Shown here piece after piece: positions 8,001-59,067 of a DNA stretch of 64,000 nucleotides; position 1 is the first letter of the stretch; each line of letters starts with the position of its first letter. The stretch lies in the IMG/VR virus record IMGVR_UViG_3300037245_000888, positions 1-64,000 of that record, one strand, 5' to 3'. The translations under genes were made by a program, and so were the position numbers. The notes beneath the pieces are model-generated. The model was not told the DNA's origin, did no database searches, and saw nothing but the letters and a program-made list of their open reading frames with translations. The stretch is from a virus.

Positions 8001-9546
8001 GGATGGTAAATAAAAGATGGAATGATATACAGAGGTAGGGAGGATGAATAAGATGAGAACAAAACAAGGTAGAAGGGTATATTGTGGAATAGAACGATTA
8101 ACTAAACTGGCTGGATCTATAATGTATTTAGATATGTTTTATAACTCTCCTAAAATAACTGAAGAGGAAATAGATGAAGCGTGTGAAATGGTAAAAATAG
8201 ATAATTCATTTAGTCAACTAACCACAGTTATTAATCAGAGCAAACACCAAATGATAATTACTAGAGGAAATTACAGAGGTATTTATGATTTAGATACTAA
8301 AGAACAAATGTTAAAAGCATTAGAGTGTGAAAAATTATTACTTAGTAAAACGGAATAAAAATATATAATAAATAGGAGATGAAATGAAAATAATAACTAA
8401 AGAAAATAAAGTTATATTAGATTTTGAAGGTGATACAATTACTACTGTAAATGATATTTTAATAGATGAGGCGAGTAATGATGGCACTGTAAATATAGAA
8501 ATACGCAAGGGTCATTGGGTAGGAAATGGAACTAATTTAGTCACCAATATATTTTCTTGTGGTAGAGGTTATATAAAGTCACATGAACCAAATAAATATA
8601 CATCTGATCAACTCAAAGAGGCTATAGAATATCATATTAAAATGGGAACATATGAATGTGATATAATAGATTTTGATGATTATATGAAGCAATGGGAATT
8701 GAGTAAAAGTGAGGTATAATATGAAAGCTAGTAAGCTAAGAGAAGATATCAATAATAGAATGAACAAGGAGTGGTCTGAAAGTAATGATCATGCTTGTGT
8801 CCTAGGTGTGGCTGAAAAGATAATTGAAGAGTTATTGAAGATTATAGAAGGTAAGGGTGAATAGATGAGTAGCAACAATACATTAATTAAAGCAGCACTC
8901 TGTCAAATTAAACAACAGGGAATAGATTTATCTGATGGATTTGATATTGCTGTACAGAGTGATAATGGAGGCGTAAAGTTAATATTGGCTTATACTACTG
9001 AGGAGGTTATTGAAGACGCATATACTACAATTGTTGATTTGGAAAATAGAGTTGAAGAATTAGAGTATGTGGCTAGATTGATTAAGTTGGCTAGGGAGGG
9101 TGAGTAGGTGAGTAAATTTGAAGACAAGATAAATAAAGAAATAGAAGATATTATAATGTCAACTATAAAATCTGATCAAAATGCGATGTACACAGAATCA
9201 GGTAAGTTTAGTAAAGAAAATCTGGAAGAGTTAATGGAAACTTTAAACGCTTTGCCTAGATTTGTCATATCATTTGAAATAAATCAATATACTTGTAACA
9301 CCATATTCTTAGGAATTATGAGCAGTATTAAATATGGTGATGATATGGAGTTCAATAAGCCAAATATGGTTATTGTAGACAACCTTTCAGATAATGAAGT
9401 GAGAAGAGTATATAACAATGGAGATACTGAGATTGATAAAGTTTATAAATATGACGGTAAGATGTTTATTATACCAGTGTATGAAAATCTGTTAGTTAGA
9501 TATGAACATGAAGAGGTTAGTAAGTTAAAATAGATAATTAACAATC

Positions 9547-9581
9547 AAAAGATTGGTCAACATTGATCAGTCTTTTCTTTT
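9547..9581 (+). terminator. intrinsic terminator
   Basis: AAAAGATTGGTCAA / TTGATCAGTCTTTT hairpin plus T tract after the last + strand gene. Confidence 0.7.
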
Positions 9582-9687
9582 GTCCATAATACATGTCAGC
9601 TCAGACGATTGTTGGGTATTGGTTGATGGATTGGTGGTAATAAAAAACTAGACTATTAATATAATCTAGTTTAGTGGGTTTGTTTAA

Positions 9688-10632
9688 TTATGGAGTAAAT
9701 ATTATCCTGTCTTTGTCATCTATAAACTTATTACAATTTGCATAATCATTTGAGTCAAACTTCTTTAATTGATGTTGTTTAAAGAAACCAAAGAATGAAT
9801 TTCTGATAATATTATTATGATATTCTATCTTCTCTATTTCTAGGTTTAATTCATCCATAAATTCTTTTCTAGCCTTAGATAGTTTATCATATCTTTCTTT
9901 ATCCTCTTCATCAAATCCAAATGGTTCCACGAAATAATCAACACAATGGTTAATATATAATTCAATAACGTCTTCATCCTCTTTATAATCTGCCTTAAAT
10001 ACATCGTAACTTTTATTTTCTAGCGTATAGTTACTTAATTGTACAAGATTAGTCATAGTCTCTATTTCCTTAAACTTGATGTAGTTATACTCACAAGTCG
10101 TATAGATATTTGTCTTTTGTAGTAATTCTAGTTTGTTTTTAGGTAGACAATAAAGACTACTATATCTTCCAATCTGTATATTATTATATTCTACTTCTCC
10201 TGTGTTAAATGGAATAGTTCGTTGTTGTATCATAATTCTGTATTTCATTTTAGCTTTCTTTGAATTGTCTATATTACTCAGTTGTCTGAGATTCTGTTGG
10301 TGCATCTCTTTAAATTCATTGAAGCTGAATATAGTATAATTATCTGATACGGTATTAATAACGCGGTAGCTATCAAGCTGCCAACAATTATCTTTTGTTA
10401 TTGTGTACACGTTAAATTCTTCTCTTAACTCAAAGTAATTATTACAGTAGTCTTCTAGGCTTATTTTAAGTTCTGGATCATACAGTCCGAAATAATTTGC
10501 GAAAGACTTATTATTAGAATATTTCTCTAGGAATAATATCAACTCCTTTGCCTCGAATATACTGTTGCATTGTACTGCTATGGTTAAATCGCACATAGCA
10601 TCATAATGATGTTTATTTAATTCTTTGTTCAT
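9688..10632 (-). CDS. hypothetical protein, last of a 3-gene - strand unit (with 10634-10837 and 10872-11090)
   Basis: 314-aa ORF with AGGAG RBS; promoter TTGCAC-17-TACAAT near 11137-11165; hairpin near 9645-9672. Confidence 0.75.
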   Translation of the reverse strand: MNKELNKHHYDAMCDLTIAVQCNSIFEAKELILFLEKYSNNKSFANYFGLYDPELKISLEDYCNNYFELREEFNVYTITKDNCWQLDSYRVINTVSDNYTIFSFNEFKEMHQQNLRQLSNIDNSKKAKMKYRIMIQQRTIPFNTGEVEYNNIQIGRYSSLYCLPKNKLELLQKTNIYTTCEYNYIKFKEIETMTNLVQLSNYTLENKSYDVFKADYKEDEDVIELYINHCVDYFVEPFGFDEEDKERYDKLSKARKEFMDELNLEIEKIEYHNNIIRNSFFGFFKQHQLKKFDSNDYANCNKFIDDKDRIIFTP

Positions 10633-12505: not shown

Positions 12506-13660
12506 ATGGGAAAGATGTCAAAATATGAACTTACATTAGTTAAAACCTATGTAAGCGATTGGGGCGTAGTAGAAGGCATGAGAGAGTTGTTTCAAAATGC
12601 ATGTGATCAAGAGATAGTCGATACAACAAATAAAATGTTTTATAAGTATGACGAAGATAATGAAGTTTTTCAAATAGGAAATTTAAAATCCGTACTAGAG
12701 GTTAAATCTTTATTACTAGGAATGTCTACTAAAAAAGATAATGAAGAAACAACAGGTAGACATGGTGATGGATTAAAAAGTGGCATACTTGCACTAATTA
12801 GAGATGGTAAAGAAGTAGTTATTTATAATTATGGTAAAAAACAAGTATGGAAACCTAGATTTGTTAATTCAAGAAGATATGGTGAAGAGATTCTTACTTT
12901 CTTTGTGGAAGAGCAAAACATATGGAATCCAGTTCCTCATAACAATTTAGTTATTGAAATAAAAGGTATAGACTCTGAAGAGTATAAAGAAATTAAAAAG
13001 ACGAATTTACACATTGAAAGACCAGATGATTTTATAGAAACTCCAAGTGGTAATATCTTATTAGACAAAGAGTACGCCGGCAAAGTATTTGTAAATGGAT
13101 TATATGTGTGTAGAGCTGATGAATTTATGTATGGATATGATTTAAAACCAAAATATATAAAGCTTGATAGAGATAGAAGGGCAGTCAGTAATTGGGATTT
13201 AAAATTAATTACAAGACAAATGTGGTTAGCTCAAGGAGATGATCAAAATTATCGTATTAGAGCAATGGCTAAAGTGAACAGTATGGATATATCTGGTATG
13301 GAATACGTTAGTAAAACTAATATGACTGAAACATATACAGATTCTTATGAGGAGTTTGTAGAAGAATATGGTGATAATGCAATGCCAGCAAGCTATTCAG
13401 ATTACAATGAAGTAAAAGAACAATATCCAGATGCAGAAATAGTTTCTGTTAATGAATCTGTAAAAGAATTGATTACTAGGTCAGCAGCTTATCAGATTAA
13501 ATCAACCACATTAAGAGTTGAAATAGTAAAGACATCTGAGACATTGGAAAACTGGAGAGGTGAATTGTATGACTTACTAGAAGGAACAAGTTATGAGCTA
13601 TCATCTGAAATGGAATCAAGAATGGACGATATATTAGAGAAAGTTAAAGAAATGGAATAG
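12506..13660 (+). CDS. GHKL (HATPase_c-like) ATPase domain protein
   Basis: N-box RELFQNACD, G2-box GRHGDGLK. Confidence 0.75.
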   Translation: MGKMSKYELTLVKTYVSDWGVVEGMRELFQNACDQEIVDTTNKMFYKYDEDNEVFQIGNLKSVLEVKSLLLGMSTKKDNEETTGRHGDGLKSGILALIRDGKEVVIYNYGKKQVWKPRFVNSRRYGEEILTFFVEEQNIWNPVPHNNLVIEIKGIDSEEYKEIKKTNLHIERPDDFIETPSGNILLDKEYAGKVFVNGLYVCRADEFMYGYDLKPKYIKLDRDRRAVSNWDLKLITRQMWLAQGDDQNYRIRAMAKVNSMDISGMEYVSKTNMTETYTDSYEEFVEEYGDNAMPASYSDYNEVKEQYPDAEIVSVNESVKELITRSAAYQIKSTTLRVEIVKTSETLENWRGELYDLLEGTSYELSSEMESRMDDILEKVKEME

Positions 13661-13668
13661 GAGGAATT

Positions 13669-14832
13669 ATGAAAGTAATATGCGTAGAAGATTATTTAAG
13701 CACAAGCAGAATATCAGTTGCTGTAGGAGATATATTGGAATGTGAAGGTGATAAGATTCTTAAAAACGACACTTGGATATGCGATATTAATAGTCCATTT
13801 GGCGAAAGGTACTTTGAAGAATATCACGAAGCGATTAAAAGTAATTACAACAATCAACTAACAAAAGAAGAATCAGATCATGTGGCACATACTTTAAACG
13901 AAAAGGAGAGTAATAAAATGAATGTAATTAAAGCGGTAAAAGAACTAAACATTGATACAAAAATATTAAAGTCAATTGAGCAATATATAGTTGACTCTGA
14001 TACTGTTAGATTAACACCTTCTGGATTAGCTATTGATGGTAAAGTTTTCTCTAGAAAGACTGAACAATTATTGGACGTAAGAGGTACAGAACTACCATTG
14101 GATATTCCTGTTGGATTCTGTATTCCTACTGATGCAAGTAATATTGCGAAAGGTGATATTATATATAATTCTGAAGGTAAAGCTTTCCATGTATTGTATG
14201 TTAATGAGAAGACTTTTGGCACATTTAATAAAAAGAAAACTCCTAAAGAAGTAATCTGTATTTCACCTAATGAAGATAGAAAGATTACAATGATACCCAC
14301 TGTAGATATATTTGGTAATCAAGTTTATAACAAATTGATCACACCATTTAATTTTGATATGGGATGTAATCCTTTATTAAATGTTGCTGCAGTATTAGGA
14401 ACGAGTATTATTAATAAAGATATTAATTCTGCTATTGATACCCTGTTACCACAATCATTAAAGTTGATTAGTAAGATTGATTTAAATGCTATAACTAGTG
14501 ATAAAAGAGTAGTATTCTTAAGTCCATTATTGATATTCTTATATAAAATGAGTAAAGATAAAGAGTTTGACTTGAATAGTGTTAAAGATTATATTTTCAA
14601 TATAGACAAGAAAACAAAGATCTTAATCGTTCTTGCATTAGCAATGGTATTATACATATCAAAAGATAAAATTGCAGAATTGATTATGTCAGACAGATTA
14701 GATAGAATTCCATTGGTAAATAAAGTAAGTAAGCCATTAGGTAGATTGCTGGTTAAGATACCTAGTGTAAAGTTGAGTGTGATTAAAGGATATAGTGATA
14801 GAATTGTTGGTATGTTTAAGAGTGGGGAGTAA
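13669..14832 (+). CDS. hypothetical multi-domain protein with a C-terminal hydrophobic segment; probable second in-frame start at 13918
   Basis: 387-aa ORF; internal AAAGGAG plus ATG in frame. Confidence 0.7.
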   Translation: MKVICVEDYLSTSRISVAVGDILECEGDKILKNDTWICDINSPFGERYFEEYHEAIKSNYNNQLTKEESDHVAHTLNEKESNKMNVIKAVKELNIDTKILKSIEQYIVDSDTVRLTPSGLAIDGKVFSRKTEQLLDVRGTELPLDIPVGFCIPTDASNIAKGDIIYNSEGKAFHVLYVNEKTFGTFNKKKTPKEVICISPNEDRKITMIPTVDIFGNQVYNKLITPFNFDMGCNPLLNVAAVLGTSIINKDINSAIDTLLPQSLKLISKIDLNAITSDKRVVFLSPLLIFLYKMSKDKEFDLNSVKDYIFNIDKKTKILIVLALAMVLYISKDKIAELIMSDRLDRIPLVNKVSKPLGRLLVKIPSVKLSVIKGYSDRIVGMFKSGE

Positions 14833-16075: not shown

Positions 16076-16435
16076 ATGGAAAATAAGCTATTTGAACAAA
16101 TGCAAAATATTATTAAAAATGAATCACTACATGGTACTATTGTTCTATTGGATAATAAAGAAGATCGAGGAATAGGTAAAACTTCTAGCATTTCTATGTT
16201 AGCAGACATATATCAGTTAAAAGTAGGTAAGAAACATAACTATCCAGAATGTGGAATAAAGCTAAATACCAATGAAGATTATTATGCAGGTAAAATATAT
16301 AACTCTGAGGATATGTATATACTGGACGAAGGATTCACATTAAACGAAGTTAACATTTTGAAGAAGTATTATAATATCATATTTGCATTGGTTAATGTTA
16401 ATCAACTTAATGGATTTGTTATGGTTGAAAAATAA
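16076..16435 (+). CDS. minimal P-loop NTPase-like protein
   Basis: RGIGKTS Walker A-like and YILDE Walker B-like motifs in 119 aa. Confidence 0.5.
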   Translation: MENKLFEQMQNIIKNESLHGTIVLLDNKEDRGIGKTSSISMLADIYQLKVGKKHNYPECGIKLNTNEDYYAGKIYNSEDMYILDEGFTLNEVNILKKYYNIIFALVNVNQLNGFVMVEK

Positions 16436-16442
16436 TAATAAG

Positions 16443-16474
16443 TAAAGTTAGTCTTAAATGATTAGCTTTATTTT
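16443..16474 (+). terminator. intrinsic terminator ending the + strand array
   Basis: TAAAGTTAGTC / GATTAGCTTTA hairpin plus TTTT. Confidence 0.65.
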
Positions 16475-17627
16475 ATTGTCTGGATTATACCACATACAAA
16501 ACTACCATATTTGAATAAATTAATAAGTTATATGGTGATATGCTGCTGATCATATATAAATAGATTGTTTGTTAGATATTATATAATGTTATCGATATAG
16601 ATGTTAAATAAGCTTGTGAGGATAGGCTGTGAGAGGATTTAAATGGAATGTGGATAGATAGTATCAGAATAATATAGAGTGGATTGTATAGGGTTATAGA
16701 GCTGTTTAAATAGGTTAGTTAGTTTAGTAACTAAGTGATATAGTATATAGTCTGAGTTAGATATGTTGGAAATACTGGATTGTTATGGTCTGTGGTATGG
16801 AAATATGATGGAGTGGGTAGAAATGTGGATTTGTTACTTATATTTGGATAATGTGAATATATGTTGGAATGTGTTAGATATAGTGTTAATATGTGTTAAT
16901 GATGTGTGAGTATATGGTAAATAGAAGGTAATAAGGTGTAAATGGAAGGATGTGGGAATAGAGTGGTATATGAATGGAAGGTAGTGATAGTAATTGTTCG
17001 GAGAGTATGTATATGTTAAATATAGTGATTAGGATAGGGTAGAATGATAGTTATTAGGATTATGGTGTAATTGTATAGGATGGGTATAGATATAGTGTGA
17101 GAGGGTAAATTTGAGGTTATGTAGGGTGTGATGGATATTGTAGTAGTGTGTTGGGAATATTCGTGTGATAAAAGTAGATTTGATTGTTTGGATTAATATG
17201 ATTAGTAGGGAATTATTGGAATATTGTATAGTTGAGATAGTATTGTTATATTGTGATCTGGATTGATATGTAGTGATATAGGATATGAAACGCTAAAAAT
17301 TTTAGAAAAAATAATGGAAAGTTGTGTAGGGATGGGAAAGGTGAAAAAGTGTGAGATGTAAAGGTAGGGGTGGGTTGTGGGGTGATATGGATATAGTTGG
17401 ATTGAGTTGAGTAGGATGTAATGTGAATGTAATGGTATTCTGTGGAACAGTTATGGAATAGTCTACTTAGTAAATCTGGGCGAATGTCAAAGGTGGTAAA
17501 TATTGTAAACTACCCCCTATCCCTTGCCATTGGTAGATTCTGGATAATATGGAAAATTATATTATATATTCAATATGACAATTAAGTAATCCCAACGATC
17601 CCAGAAACATCCTAATATATGTCAGCT

Positions 17628-17656
17628 ACTTCACATAATATGGTATTATGTAACTT
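17628..17656. other. dif-like tyrosine recombinase site
   Basis: ACTTCACATAA-tatggta-TTATGTAACTT, compared with B. subtilis dif ACTTCCTAGAA-tatata-TTATGTAAACT; spacer is 7 bp rather than 6. Confidence 0.5.
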
Positions 17657-17903
17657 CAATATTAATCTCATTATGAGACTGATAACAACTGATCCAGCAG
17701 CAATATACCATAAATTACCATATTATCAATTAATAGATAAATCTCCTAATATCTACCATATAATAGATAAATCAACATATTATCCATATTATGCCATATC
17801 CTACCCATATTTTACCATTTTCCATTATTTTACATTAATTGTTAGTTTCGCCCAATATTCGGCATACCTCGTTATACGAGCTTTCTTATAACACTAAGAA
17901 TGT

Positions 17904-18262
17904 ACTTATCAATTGATAACTATAATTTCATCTAACTACCCCACTAACAAATAATCCTATCTAACTATTTAATTAATATTAACCTTATATCATATCTATC
18001 TAACTATATATAAATTATCAAACCAATTAGAATATCATCTAACTGTATCACTATATCACCTATGTTAGACTGCTATCTAACTACCATATTATACTTATCA
18101 TTTGACAACTATATCCAATCACCACCACTATACTAAGTATATACAATGTATATACAATCATCCCATATGATCCCATATGATCCCATCCCATAACATAAAA
18201 CAATACCTATACCAAACTTATGTTACAACTATTATTCATGTTATAGGATCATATAGGATCAA
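17904..18262 (+). repeat. phased short repeats
   Basis: ATCTAACT at 17930, 17959, 17998, 18037, 18075; a 21-mer at 17904 and 18093 (2 mismatches); tandem GTATATACAAT x2, ATCCCATATG x2.7, ATAGGATCA x2. Confidence 0.75.
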
Positions 18263-19616
18263 TCACTCACATATAACACCAATCAACCATATCCTACTAT
18301 ATCGCCTGTATTCCCTCTCTATTCAATTATACATAACATGCTATCAATAACACCAATAACTAAATAACTATCAATATACCTTACACCTATGTTATATCAA
18401 CGCTTATGCATGATATACAATACCTATCTTATTATAGCTACCATATAACAGGATCACTATATTATAATATATACTGTTAACGTCTTATAAACTACCTGTA
18501 ATCCCTTTACAATCTAATCAATACAATAACGCCTTAATAACATAGTAATCACCTTACAACCCTATATAATGCTATACATAACCTAATCCAAGACAATAAA
18601 AAAAAGAATACCATTTCTGATATTCTAATATTAACTTTATTCTATTTATTGAAATACTTTTCTACTATTAATTCACACATACCGAACCCAAATCCTTCAC
18701 CACAAACAATTTTATATTTTTTATTAAAGAAGTCAGACACCTTTTCACTTGAACCATAATTGGTATAATCATTATCTTTTCCATATACAACCCAACTCCA
18801 AGCACCGCCACTTAATTGATGAGTACCAGCGTATGTCCTTTCAATAACAGGGAATAAATCAAGGTTTTCACATTCCTTTAATATCTTAACTAATTTTATA
18901 GCATTTTTTGTTATGCCATACCTTTGATTACAATATCTAAATGCATGATAATTTAATAATATTCTTCTATCCCATTCGCCAGTCAAATAGTTATCTCTAA
19001 CCCATTTTACTAATACTTCATCACTTTTATTAAATGATATTCTTAAATCCCTTAAAAGGTAATCAAGTGCTAAACTAACAGGGTAATTATTATTCATTTT
19101 TAAAGTCTCCTTCTATAATTGTATAGTCTTCTTCATCTTCAATAGTCCACTCTAAATCGCATATATCTCTAATATCAGCCCATTTAGTATGCTTTTCATT
19201 TTCCCATATAACTATAAATTTTTCTGGCATTTCTTGATTAAAGAAGTTTAAAGCAACTTTCATAATTTTATCATTTAAAGCTTTTTTCTTTTGTTCATCT
19301 GTTTTCTTTACTGTTTTAACTTCTATCATAACAACATTATCAGAATCTACATGTTGAAATAAATCTTTATCGTCAATTACTAACCAAGTAGGAATATATA
19401 AATCATTGTCAATCTCTTTAGTCAAACTCATAGCTACATATGAGAAATACTCTTTTTTATTCGAATACAAGATACTGTTATTTTCTCCAACTTTAAAACC
19501 ATATGCTTTATCAGTAGTAATATAACTATTTCTGTTTACTTTATAAAACGCTTTTTTCATGATGAACTCCTTTATAGTTGTTTTGTTTCCTTCTATTAAA
19601 TTACTTGCTTAACGCA

Positions 19617-25312: not shown

Positions 25313-25828
25313 TTATCCACAGATTGCAGCAATGGGATCAAAAGCAGCTATATCAACGGTTACAAGTGATTTACTAAAATAGTTATCAACAGATTTCATT
25401 ATTTTAAAACAAAAGTTATCCACAGGTAAAATAGATTTTATTGTTTTACTTATATAGAAGAAAGATATCAATTTTTAGACTTTTGAATCCTTGTATAGTA
25501 GGCTATGACTGGTATGCAGCCATTTTAAATTATGGGAATATTTATTGATCTTTAAATTGTTATAAAATAAATGGTAAAATGTGGTAGAATAATTAAGTTT
25601 AATTAATTGTATAAAATCTATTGACAAATAATATATAAATATGGTAGAATGGGCTGACACCCTTTTAAAGTTGTTTGTAATTTTAATGTTATTAACAGTT
25701 GTGGATAACTTTTGTGGATATGTGGATAAAATGTGGATAACTTCTTGAAATTGTGGATAACTCATGATATACTCTATTTAGGGTTAGTTATCCCCAGAAA
25801 CTGGGGATAAAAATAAATCTGTGGATAA
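25313..25828. promoter_or_regulatory. DnaA-box cluster
   Basis: Perfect TTATCCACA at 25313 and 25416 (+) and at 25700, 25721, 25732, 25752, 25820 (-); one-mismatch copies at 25383, 25713, 25788, 25802. Confidence 0.88.
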
Positions 25829-57572: not shown

Positions 57573-59067
57573 TAATGAAAGATAATTTAAGTAAAGCAAT
57601 ATTTTTAAAGCATGAAACTGATGAAACTGGATATCCTATAATCGGATATGAATATGTAAAACAATTCCACGATAATGCAAAACAAGCATTCCCAGACAAT
57701 GTAATATTTTCATATTTTGGATTTGATATTCATGTCTTGGAAGGAACAGATTTAATTAAAGTTGAAAGTTTAGAAGAGATCAAAGATATATTAAATCAGA
57801 AATTAGAAGATATTAAAGTTAATAGTTTAAAGGTTGAAGTATCTGAATAAGTGTGGTATTATTGATTAGTAAGATATGTTGTGAACCAAACTAAGATTAT
57901 AAAAGGAGATTAAAAAGATGACAGGAAAGAAAATTGATTTAGAAAATGTAGAAGCGGTTGATGTTGATTTTGAAGAGGTAGTTGAAACTGAAGGTGATAC
58001 TCCGGTAGAAGTTAAGCCAGAAGAGAAACCAAAATTAACATTAGAGGAACAAGTTGTTAGTTTAGAAGGCAAAATTGAAGAAGTTAAAAGATATCAAAGT
58101 TTCTTGAGTTTAGTTAAGATGGCTGGAGTTGGTTTCAGATATGAACTTCCGAGTAAAGATGACAGATCAGTTATGACATTGAATGTTGTAGTTAAGAAAA
58201 CTAAAACTGGTCATATGGATGTTGAGAAATATGAGATTGATGGTAGAAATGAAGATGGTACTGGTATTCAAGGTAAGTGGTTAGGTAAAGAGAGATTGAC
58301 TGGTACAGCTTTCGACATGGGTGAGCAGCAAGCTAAAATGTATTTACAAATGTTTGAGAGTCAACTTGAGTTAGTTAAGAGTGAGATCAGTGGTGAGACT
58401 GTTGATGGGGTTAAGGTTGAAAGAGGATTGAGAGCCAAGACAGGAGTATTAGATGAGAAAATTTAAAGTTATTAAACAATTTGGAAGATGTGGCGTAGGA
58501 GATATTGTTAATGAAGATTATATTTATACTCATTTTAATAACCACCGTGGTATATCTTGGACTGGAAACATAGAAGACTTCAATAGTATTCTTTTAGGTA
58601 AGATAGAAGAAGTTTTTGAATTTGTACCTGTTAAACCACAAACATTCACAACTTTAGAAATGATTGCTGACTGGAAAGATAGTGAATTTACTAAAGAGTA
58701 TCAGATATTAGATAGTAAAGATCATGATAATTGGGTTGGAGCCAATGATACTTATGGATGGCTATGTTGGAAAAGAGACTTTGATGATAGATTTCCTATG
58801 TGCGAGTCAAATTTAAATGATATTTGGATTGAAAAAGTTGAACCAAAACCTGAATACATCAAATTTTCTGATTGGGAAGATGGTGTTTGGTATTTTACAG
58901 AAGGAGCGTCAAGCTGTCATATGACGAAGGATAGTATTGTATATTATTCTGGTAAAGAATTAATTATAGAATATGGAGATGATGTTAAATTGGATAAAAG
59001 TCAAATTAGCTACAATCAATTAACTGGATTTAAATGGATTAAGTTTGAAATATAAGGAGAATAAAAT

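Follow-up and report, generated by a model that had tools for sequence, protein, structure and literature searches.

A mirror-skewed noncoding block in an uncultured phage genome as a probable genome-end and packaging region of the SPbeta-like type

The window analysed here is the first 64 kb of a 111,832-bp phage record in IMG/VR (IMGVR_UViG_3300037245_000888), a genome with an overall GC content of 30%, and positions below are those of this 64,000-nt stretch unless another numbering is named. A rightward operon ends at 16435 and a leftward operon ends at 18642, and the roughly 2.2 kb between them (16436-18641) carry no open reading frames (ORFs). This noncoding block, in which two compositionally mirrored arms face each other across a balanced centre, is the subject of this report. 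Comparison with related phages makes it probable that the block is the place where the DNA of this SPbeta-like phage is cut and packaged. Its three parts are as follows.

16600-17439, plus strand: left arm, C-depleted and G/T-rich, with 14 C and 258 G in 840 nt (1.7% C, 31% G); it holds no ORFs and is not a long repeat.
About 17465-17705 (approximate edges, ~220-240 bp), plus strand: balanced centre with a skew of about -0.1; predicted terminal-repeat or pac unit.
17700-18600, minus strand: right arm, whose plus strand is G-depleted, with 48 G and 203 C in 901 nt (5% G, 23% C), and whose minus strand is C-poor and G-rich.

The compositional anomaly is real, and the initial annotation, made from the letters alone, described it accurately. 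Its count of 4 C in 480 nt is exact for 16801-17280, where C occurs only at 16837, 16999, 17162 and 17258, against 144 G. The G runs that it saw building toward 17400 are clustered at 17328-17382, and the sharp switch that it placed near 17508 is found at the motif AAACTACCCCCTATCCC, which begins at 17507. It was also right that the block is not an inverted repeat at the level of sequence: the best pair of arms reaches only 39-40 nt at 70-77%, no long inverted repeat is present in the block, and its tandem repeats are all short. Four C-free runs follow one another in the left arm, of 161 nt (16838-16998), 162 nt (17000-17161), 95 nt (17163-17257) and 146 nt (17294-17439), and the longest such run anywhere else in the genome is 100 nt. 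A 160-nt C-free pattern gives 5 matches in the window and none in 100 shuffles. In 200-nt windows the GC skew peaks at +0.97 and then drops to -0.71. In 480-nt windows the absolute skew outside the block averages 0.27 (standard deviation 0.13) with a maximum of 0.74, and the arms reach 0.95 on the left and -0.67 on the right. Thus, only the left arm is an outlier, since it exceeds the maximum found elsewhere; the skew of the right arm (-0.6 to -0.7) is strong, yet within the range of some coding stretches. A three-segment fit places the centre at 17486-17705, with slopes of +0.30, -0.07 and -0.16 G-C per nt, and the left edge given in the list above was set from the offset of 33-49 nt between a run of C residues and the mapped ends in relatives.

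No ORF of at least 50 amino acids (aa) lies on the expected strands of the block, and all three kinds of stop codon occur in all frames. Coding under an alternative genetic code was considered and rejected, since the three stops are frequent in each sense frame and only an implausible reassignment of TAA would open the region. No tRNA was found in the block.

The possibility that the junction is an assembly artefact, raised at the outset, is answered by an independent Logan assembly of the same sample, in which a single 66-kb contig covers 12000-28000 with zero differences; hence, the junction does not depend on one assembler. The same contig extends 622 bp beyond window position 1. The "direct terminal repeat" of the record itself (1-127 and 111706-111832) is a 127-bp assembly overlap at an ordinary place and is uninformative on the physical ends, and the same is true of the "direct terminal repeats" that IMG/VR gives for four relatives, which are overlaps of 92-123 bp, again at ordinary places.

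Judged by its encoded proteins, the phage belongs, as a distant member, to the SPbeta/Tsamsa/949 group of large Firmicute siphoviruses. Its products include a DnaE-type polymerase, NAD ligase, DnaB, exonuclease V, TerL, portal and endolysin, and it has in common with the group a related portal, TerL, a DnaE-type replisome and the order of the late genes. The identities are low, at 24-27% for the portal against SPbeta-like, Tsamsa-like, 949 and Clostridioides phages and 42-45% for DnaE. The late-gene order, a YonO-like protein of 873 aa followed by a noncoding gap, exonuclease, TerL and portal, is the yonO-yonJ-yonF-yonE order of SPbeta. The 873-aa protein (genome positions 106830-109451, minus strand) belongs to phrog_8308, has no Pfam match and occupies the position of yonO; its similarity to YonO, the single-subunit RNA polymerase of SPbeta, is weak and collinear (24% over 260 aa, with a DFDSD/DNDGD stretch aligned).

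Relatives of the locus had to be reached indirectly. The proteins flanking the block are orphans in searches of IMG/VR and of a set of 5.8 billion proteins, a search with DnaE alone gave no close IMG/VR relative, and a DNA search against GenBank phages gave no match for this block or for the block of the provirus that we call G007. Because the flanking genes are orphans, relatives were collected through the rIIA-like gene at 12506-13660, and whole records were scanned for C-free runs and skew flips. Among 80 loci, none had a comparable block within 10 kb of the rIIA-like homologue. The initial annotation had named the lack of any skewed block in relatives as a reason to abandon its proposal; the layout of arm, centre and arm in fact recurs in five other phages. 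In six genomes, namely this phage and the five below, the three-segment fit gave a G>C arm that passes through a balanced centre of 220-450 bp into a C>G arm.

Provirus G007, L105 ~8470-9900: skew block.
Mammaliicoccus phi36, ~83.0-84.2 kb: skew block, centre at ~83.33-83.73 kb.
Lactococcus 949, ~13.0-14.5 kb: skew block, centre at ~13.75-14.13 kb.
Staphylococcus SPbeta-like phage, ~20.6-22.5 kb: skew block, centre at ~21.23-21.68 kb.
SPbeta, yonP-yonR intergenic region: skew block in a weaker form.

In Tsamsa and Alicyclobacillus KKP_3916 the three-part layout is partial. K-mers common to the blocks of this phage and G007 are barely above shuffles. In the five phages with the run on the plus strand, the left edge of the centre is followed after 27-110 nt by a run of at least 5 C; in the Staphylococcus SPbeta-like phage the run is G6 on the plus strand, in the right half of the centre. 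In all seven phages for which both are known, the portal gene and the C-run are on opposite strands (no portal was found in G007). In the window, the C5 run (17513-17517) is on the plus strand and the portal is on the minus strand, and so both the position and the orientation are those of the relatives. Since the arm pattern is symmetric under reverse complementation, polarity is given by the centre alone.

Evidence also comes from relatives whose ends have been located. The genomes of SPbeta, phi3T and Goe phages open between yonP and yonR (Kohm et al., bioRxiv 10.1101/2021.11.22.469490, sections 18, 24), where reads of high coverage map a pac fragment of ~250 bp that starts with GCTATGGG and ends with GGGAATCGAAG (Kohm et al., bioRxiv 10.1101/2021.11.22.469490, supplement 11); the SPbeta pac region had been recognised earlier (Fink and Zahler 1982, as cited in bioRxiv 10.1101/2021.11.22.469490). 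On the SPbeta genome (NC_001884) this published fragment is 64531-64781, which is exactly the balanced centre; its two edges, 251 bp from each other, are also the exact points at which BUCT083 and BUCT082 are opened in GenBank. For Tsamsa, restriction mapping has confirmed a terminal repeat of 284 bp (Ganz et al. 2014, PMC3903500); it stands at both ends of the record, starting with GCTAT and carrying C5 at +47, and a G-poor arm comes after it. The KKP_3916 record (OQ846916.1) has an exact terminal repeat of 308 bp directly after a G-rich, C-poor tract, and 33 nt from one of its edges this repeat contains TGTAAACTACCCCC as the reverse complement; neither the KKP_3916 paper (PMC10297869) nor the phage L47 paper discusses termini. 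Thus, the balanced centre is the end unit in each of the three lineages whose ends are known, SPbeta, Tsamsa and KKP_3916. The SPbeta fragment and the Tsamsa repeat agree in size, in the GCTAT start and in the position of C5, and the SPbeta fragment may be an exact short terminal repeat and not merely a pac signal.

Within the centre of the window, two further features bear on its kinship with these units.

17504-17517, plus strand: core motif TGTAAACTACCCCC, ending in the C5 run.
17497-17551, plus strand: best-scoring site in the whole genome, at 9.4 bits, for a profile derived from seven other phages' centres.

Runs of at least five C or G occur just three times in the 111.8-kb genome, and the C5 of the centre is one of them. 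The sequence CTACCCCC is unique in this genome and also in that of phi36, and both times it is at the centre, where the core motif and the phi36 centre have 10 nt in common. The core motif is moreover identical over 14 nt to the reverse complement of a motif in the 308-bp repeat of KKP_3916. The profile was made in leave-one-out fashion, with this phage omitted, and its best match falls on the expected strand, with an E value of ~0.09 per 64 kb or ~0.2 genome-wide, which is not significant alone. A packaging role for the block in this phage is suggested by four things together: the three-part layout, the rarity of the motif, the orientation of the C-run and the ends mapped in relatives.

The flanks of the block invite a reading in terms of transcription, as in the initial annotation, which set the composition flip at a convergence of transcription. 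Each operon is closed by its own signal.

16436-16478, plus strand: terminator hairpin with a U-rich 3' side, closing the rightward operon (last gene 16076-16435); -14.2 kcal/mol, z -3.97, 0 of 200 shuffles as stable.
18597-18626, minus strand: nine-bp hairpin followed by U8 (centroid structure), closing the leftward operon (last gene 18642-19097).

Since both operons thus have hairpin-plus-U-run terminators before the block, the arms are not simple read-through tails. The idea to be weighed is that the block serves two convergent noncoding transcripts or acts as a bidirectional Rho-dependent barrier, in which RNA entering from either side would lack C, and so resist Rho, as far as the midpoint and would be C-rich and G-poor, like a rut site, beyond it. 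The composition agrees with this. G exceeds C on the sense strand of every gene here, the arms continue this polarity, and a C-free RNA would be unable to form G-C hairpins. Against it, besides the intrinsic terminators, promoter-like and terminator-like sites are not enriched in the block (30 promoter-like sites were found and 30.1 expected), Rfam yields sub-threshold matches only, and antisense RNA is already C-rich throughout the genome, which makes a special block superfluous. Moreover, the flanking genes, convergent in this genome, diverge in SPbeta and point the same way in G007 and phi36, and strong sigma-A promoters in G007 read out of the G-poor arm. Because flanking-gene orientation varies among relatives, the block does not follow transcription; the convergence noted initially is correct for this genome and incidental to the element. 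A Rho barrier is not needed, and we regard a transcriptional role for the block as improbable. One coding feature of G007 may be recorded here: its first C-free run (58467-58592; L105:8467-8592) is a C-less ORF of 41 codons for a very acidic, Trp-rich peptide, which overlaps the stop of the preceding 191-aa gene.

Genome-wide, the excess of G over C on sense strands arises at codon position 1 (skew ~0.55), and the skew tracks the coding strand, so that the cumulative-skew plot proposed initially gives no indication of a terminus. Neutral mutational equilibrium was rejected as the origin of the arms: four-fold sites have 13% GC and a skew of ~0.1, versus 30% GC and a skew of 0.9 in the arms. 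A more specific mutational account is that the arms are a functionless scar, in which the 3'-ending strand is single-stranded beside a recurrent double-strand end and its C residues are deaminated to T. In each arm it is the strand with its 3' end at the centre that is C-poor, and T exceeds A on the C-poor strand of both (296 T and 272 A in the left arm; 346 and 304 on the minus strand of the right arm), whereas the sense strands of genes have the opposite bias, A over T. However, G makes up 22-31% of the C-poor strand against ~6-7% at four-fold sites, the short oriented repeat families of the arms are enriched well beyond composition, and under one-way packaging the heritable end adjoins one arm only. 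We give a pure scar little credence, though the T excess on the C-poor strands means that deamination may contribute. In any case, this account bears on how the skew arose and does not conflict with a genome-end role of the block.

The repeats in question are short and specific to each phage, and in the window they include the following.

16571, 16756 and 16873, plus strand: copies of GTTAGAT in the left arm.
17930-18083, minus strand: five direct copies of TAGTTAGAT(R) at spacings of 29, 39, 39 and 38 nt, iteron-like.
18160-18186, no strand assigned: tandem decamers ATCCCATATG, 2.7 copies, containing GATC.
18242-18261, no strand assigned: inverted pair TATAGGATCA, 2 copies, containing GATC.

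The arms here are assembled from such oriented units, the five copies of TAGTTAGAT, ATATGG-type words and the GATC decamers, and the 8-mer AGTTAGAT occurs 6 times in them against 0.14 expected. The corresponding arm repeats are ATTACCAAT in phi36 and CTTACC in 949. To the right of the phi36 block, a gene-poor stretch of 1 kb holds two copies of GTTACAACTGTAA(T/C)AT (~84.69-84.80 kb) plus other repeats, and the tiny ORFs annotated across the 4-kb region of that phage are probably not genes. In the arms of three phages, the helical periodicity of 10-11 bp is weak for G and GG as well as for AA/TT and TA, which leaves phased bending of the arms unsupported; a 9.5-nt signal for G in the right arm of this phage is the sole periodicity above shuffles.

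Opposed groups of GTTAGAT, three on the plus strand of the left arm and five on the minus strand of the right arm, resemble the layout of a fork trap or of iterons, and the flip from positive to negative skew has the sign of a terminus. Hence, the block could be a replication element, either a terminus with a fork trap or a second, lytic origin with iterons, and the arms would then reflect strand-specific replication. An origin would show the reverse flip, from negative to positive. The genome skew, as noted, tracks the coding strand, with codon position 1 and not the four-fold sites as its source, and the homologous centre is the mapped genome end in SPbeta, Tsamsa and KKP_3916. A DnaA-dependent origin would have clustered DnaA boxes and an AT-rich unwinding element; no perfect box lies in 16436-18641, and seven are found 8 kb away. 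A replication role for the block is, on these grounds, very doubtful. The distant group, at 25313-25828, comprises the seven perfect boxes and several with one mismatch. It lies where the leftward early operon and the replication module diverge, at the local minimum of cumulative GC skew, and is likely the replication origin.

Of the three options first put forward for the block, the last of them a conjectural polarity or R-loop signal, a genome end or packaging site is therefore the one that comparison favours, through the layout in relatives and the identity of the centre with the end unit in three lineages, and the initial interpretation as a whole is borne out in part. Several observations weigh against it. 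There is no synteny with SPbeta, whose site adjoins yonP and yonO on their upstream side; in this phage ~17 kb of early genes lie in between, and the syntenic place has no skew block. Compared with the arms of SPbeta, those of this phage have three times the length and a far more extreme composition, and they may for that reason carry a further function. Sundance and pCD1602_4 have no strong skew flip. The orphan flanking proteins leave no close relative usable as a test of conservation, and the profile match, though first in rank, is not significant and is absent under default filters. Finally, Kohm et al. interpret their SPbeta data as headful packaging from pac and not as an exact terminal repeat (bioRxiv 10.1101/2021.11.22.469490). 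Even so, we consider a cut-and-packaging site the probable identity of the block.

On this interpretation, the block would be the concatemer junction, that is, the genome-end region. The centre (~17465-17705), with TGTAAACTACCCCC near its left edge, would be the unit recognised and cut by terminase. In virion DNA the centre is probably a short direct terminal repeat of ~220-300 bp, the most likely form, as in Tsamsa, or else a fixed pac start fragment; if it is a terminal repeat, the 250-bp fragment of SPbeta would be the equivalent unit. The two arms would sit just inside the genome ends, and we infer for this uncultured phage the same end role as in its relatives, with arms that may help in packaging or in processing of the ends. 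The reading of the arms that we prefer is a geometric one. If the centre bounds a linear molecule, the 3'-ending strand at each end would be the C-poor, G/T-rich one, so that 5'-3' resection, or strand displacement while the repeat is duplicated, would expose a strand unable to form G-C hairpins, which would suit annealing and recombinase loading. Equally, the short oriented repeats, such as TAGTTAGAT and the ATATGG-type words, may be arrays of binding sites for the small terminase, and one-way C-free words could themselves create the skew. By its position, a candidate for the small terminase is the 389-aa product of 99756-100925 (genome positions). A bolder proposal is that the mirrored arms are a selected, lineage-wide signature of the end, keeping the 3'-ending strand C-less for up to 1 kb and thus unstructured, that termini can be predicted from sequence and that the SPbeta fragment is an exact repeat of the Tsamsa type; this is tentative and, taken as a whole, rather unlikely.

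The gene through which relatives were sought belongs to a pair at 12506-14832, encoding proteins of 384 and 387 aa. The first (12506-13660) is phrog_6077 / PF25856, in some phages annotated as a histidine-kinase-like ATPase or as RIIA, and has hundreds of homologues of 40-50% identity in Bacillus- and Paenibacillus-type prophages and in metagenomes.

Metagenome assemblies circularise the genomes of uncultured phages, whose ends are for that reason almost never known. If the reading of the block as a packaging site is true, a skew flip with a balanced centre of 220-300 bp and a C-run would make both the ends and the orientation of packaging readable from sequence, in a group that includes the model temperate phage SPbeta as well as dairy and staphylococcal phages. 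The location of SPbeta pac and the Tsamsa repeat were already known; in the papers searched we found no description of the three-part layout, of the C-run rule or of a kilobase-scale depletion of one base beside a phage end. The comparison joins the SPbeta pac fragment, the 284-bp repeat of Tsamsa and the 308-bp repeat of KKP_3916 as one element. It also raises the question of why the DNA beside a phage end loses one base on one strand, which bears on terminase recognition, duplication of the repeat and recombination-dependent circularisation.

Among known systems, the rut regions of Rho-dependent terminators resemble the block in composition alone, RNA past the midpoint being C-rich and G-poor; they differ in that intrinsic terminators precede the arms and in that the layout in relatives is independent of the direction of transcription. 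The concatemer junction of T7 is comparable in architecture: its short direct terminal repeat reportedly has, on both inner sides, noncoding arrays of short degenerate repeats that processing and packaging require. T7 belongs to an unrelated phage family with an unrelated terminase, its arrays are far shorter, and we know of no kilobase-scale depletion of a single base described for it. The repeat of KKP_3916 directly follows a G-rich, C-poor tract and has the 14-nt identity to 17504-17517, although its ends are known from the deposited record alone, its second arm is weak and its GC content is 40%. The Tsamsa repeat is similar in size to the centre, carries C5 at +47 and the same GCTAT start as the SPbeta fragment, is followed by a G-poor arm and goes with a related portal; however, the DNA upstream of it is coding with ordinary skew and forms no distinct C-free arm, and the genome is 169 kb. 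The pac region of SPbeta differs in having arms of only ~300 nt with skews of +0.7 and -0.4, in lying between divergent genes beside yonO and in having ends that are mapped, where those of the present phage are predicted; similarity between the two centres is confined to GTAAATAT, the C5 run and a GGATAATAT-like box. Yet it belongs to the same lineage with the same late-gene order, and it is likewise gene-free, with a G>C arm, a centre of ~250 bp that has C5 at 49 nt from its left edge, a C>G arm and a C-run on the strand opposite the portal.

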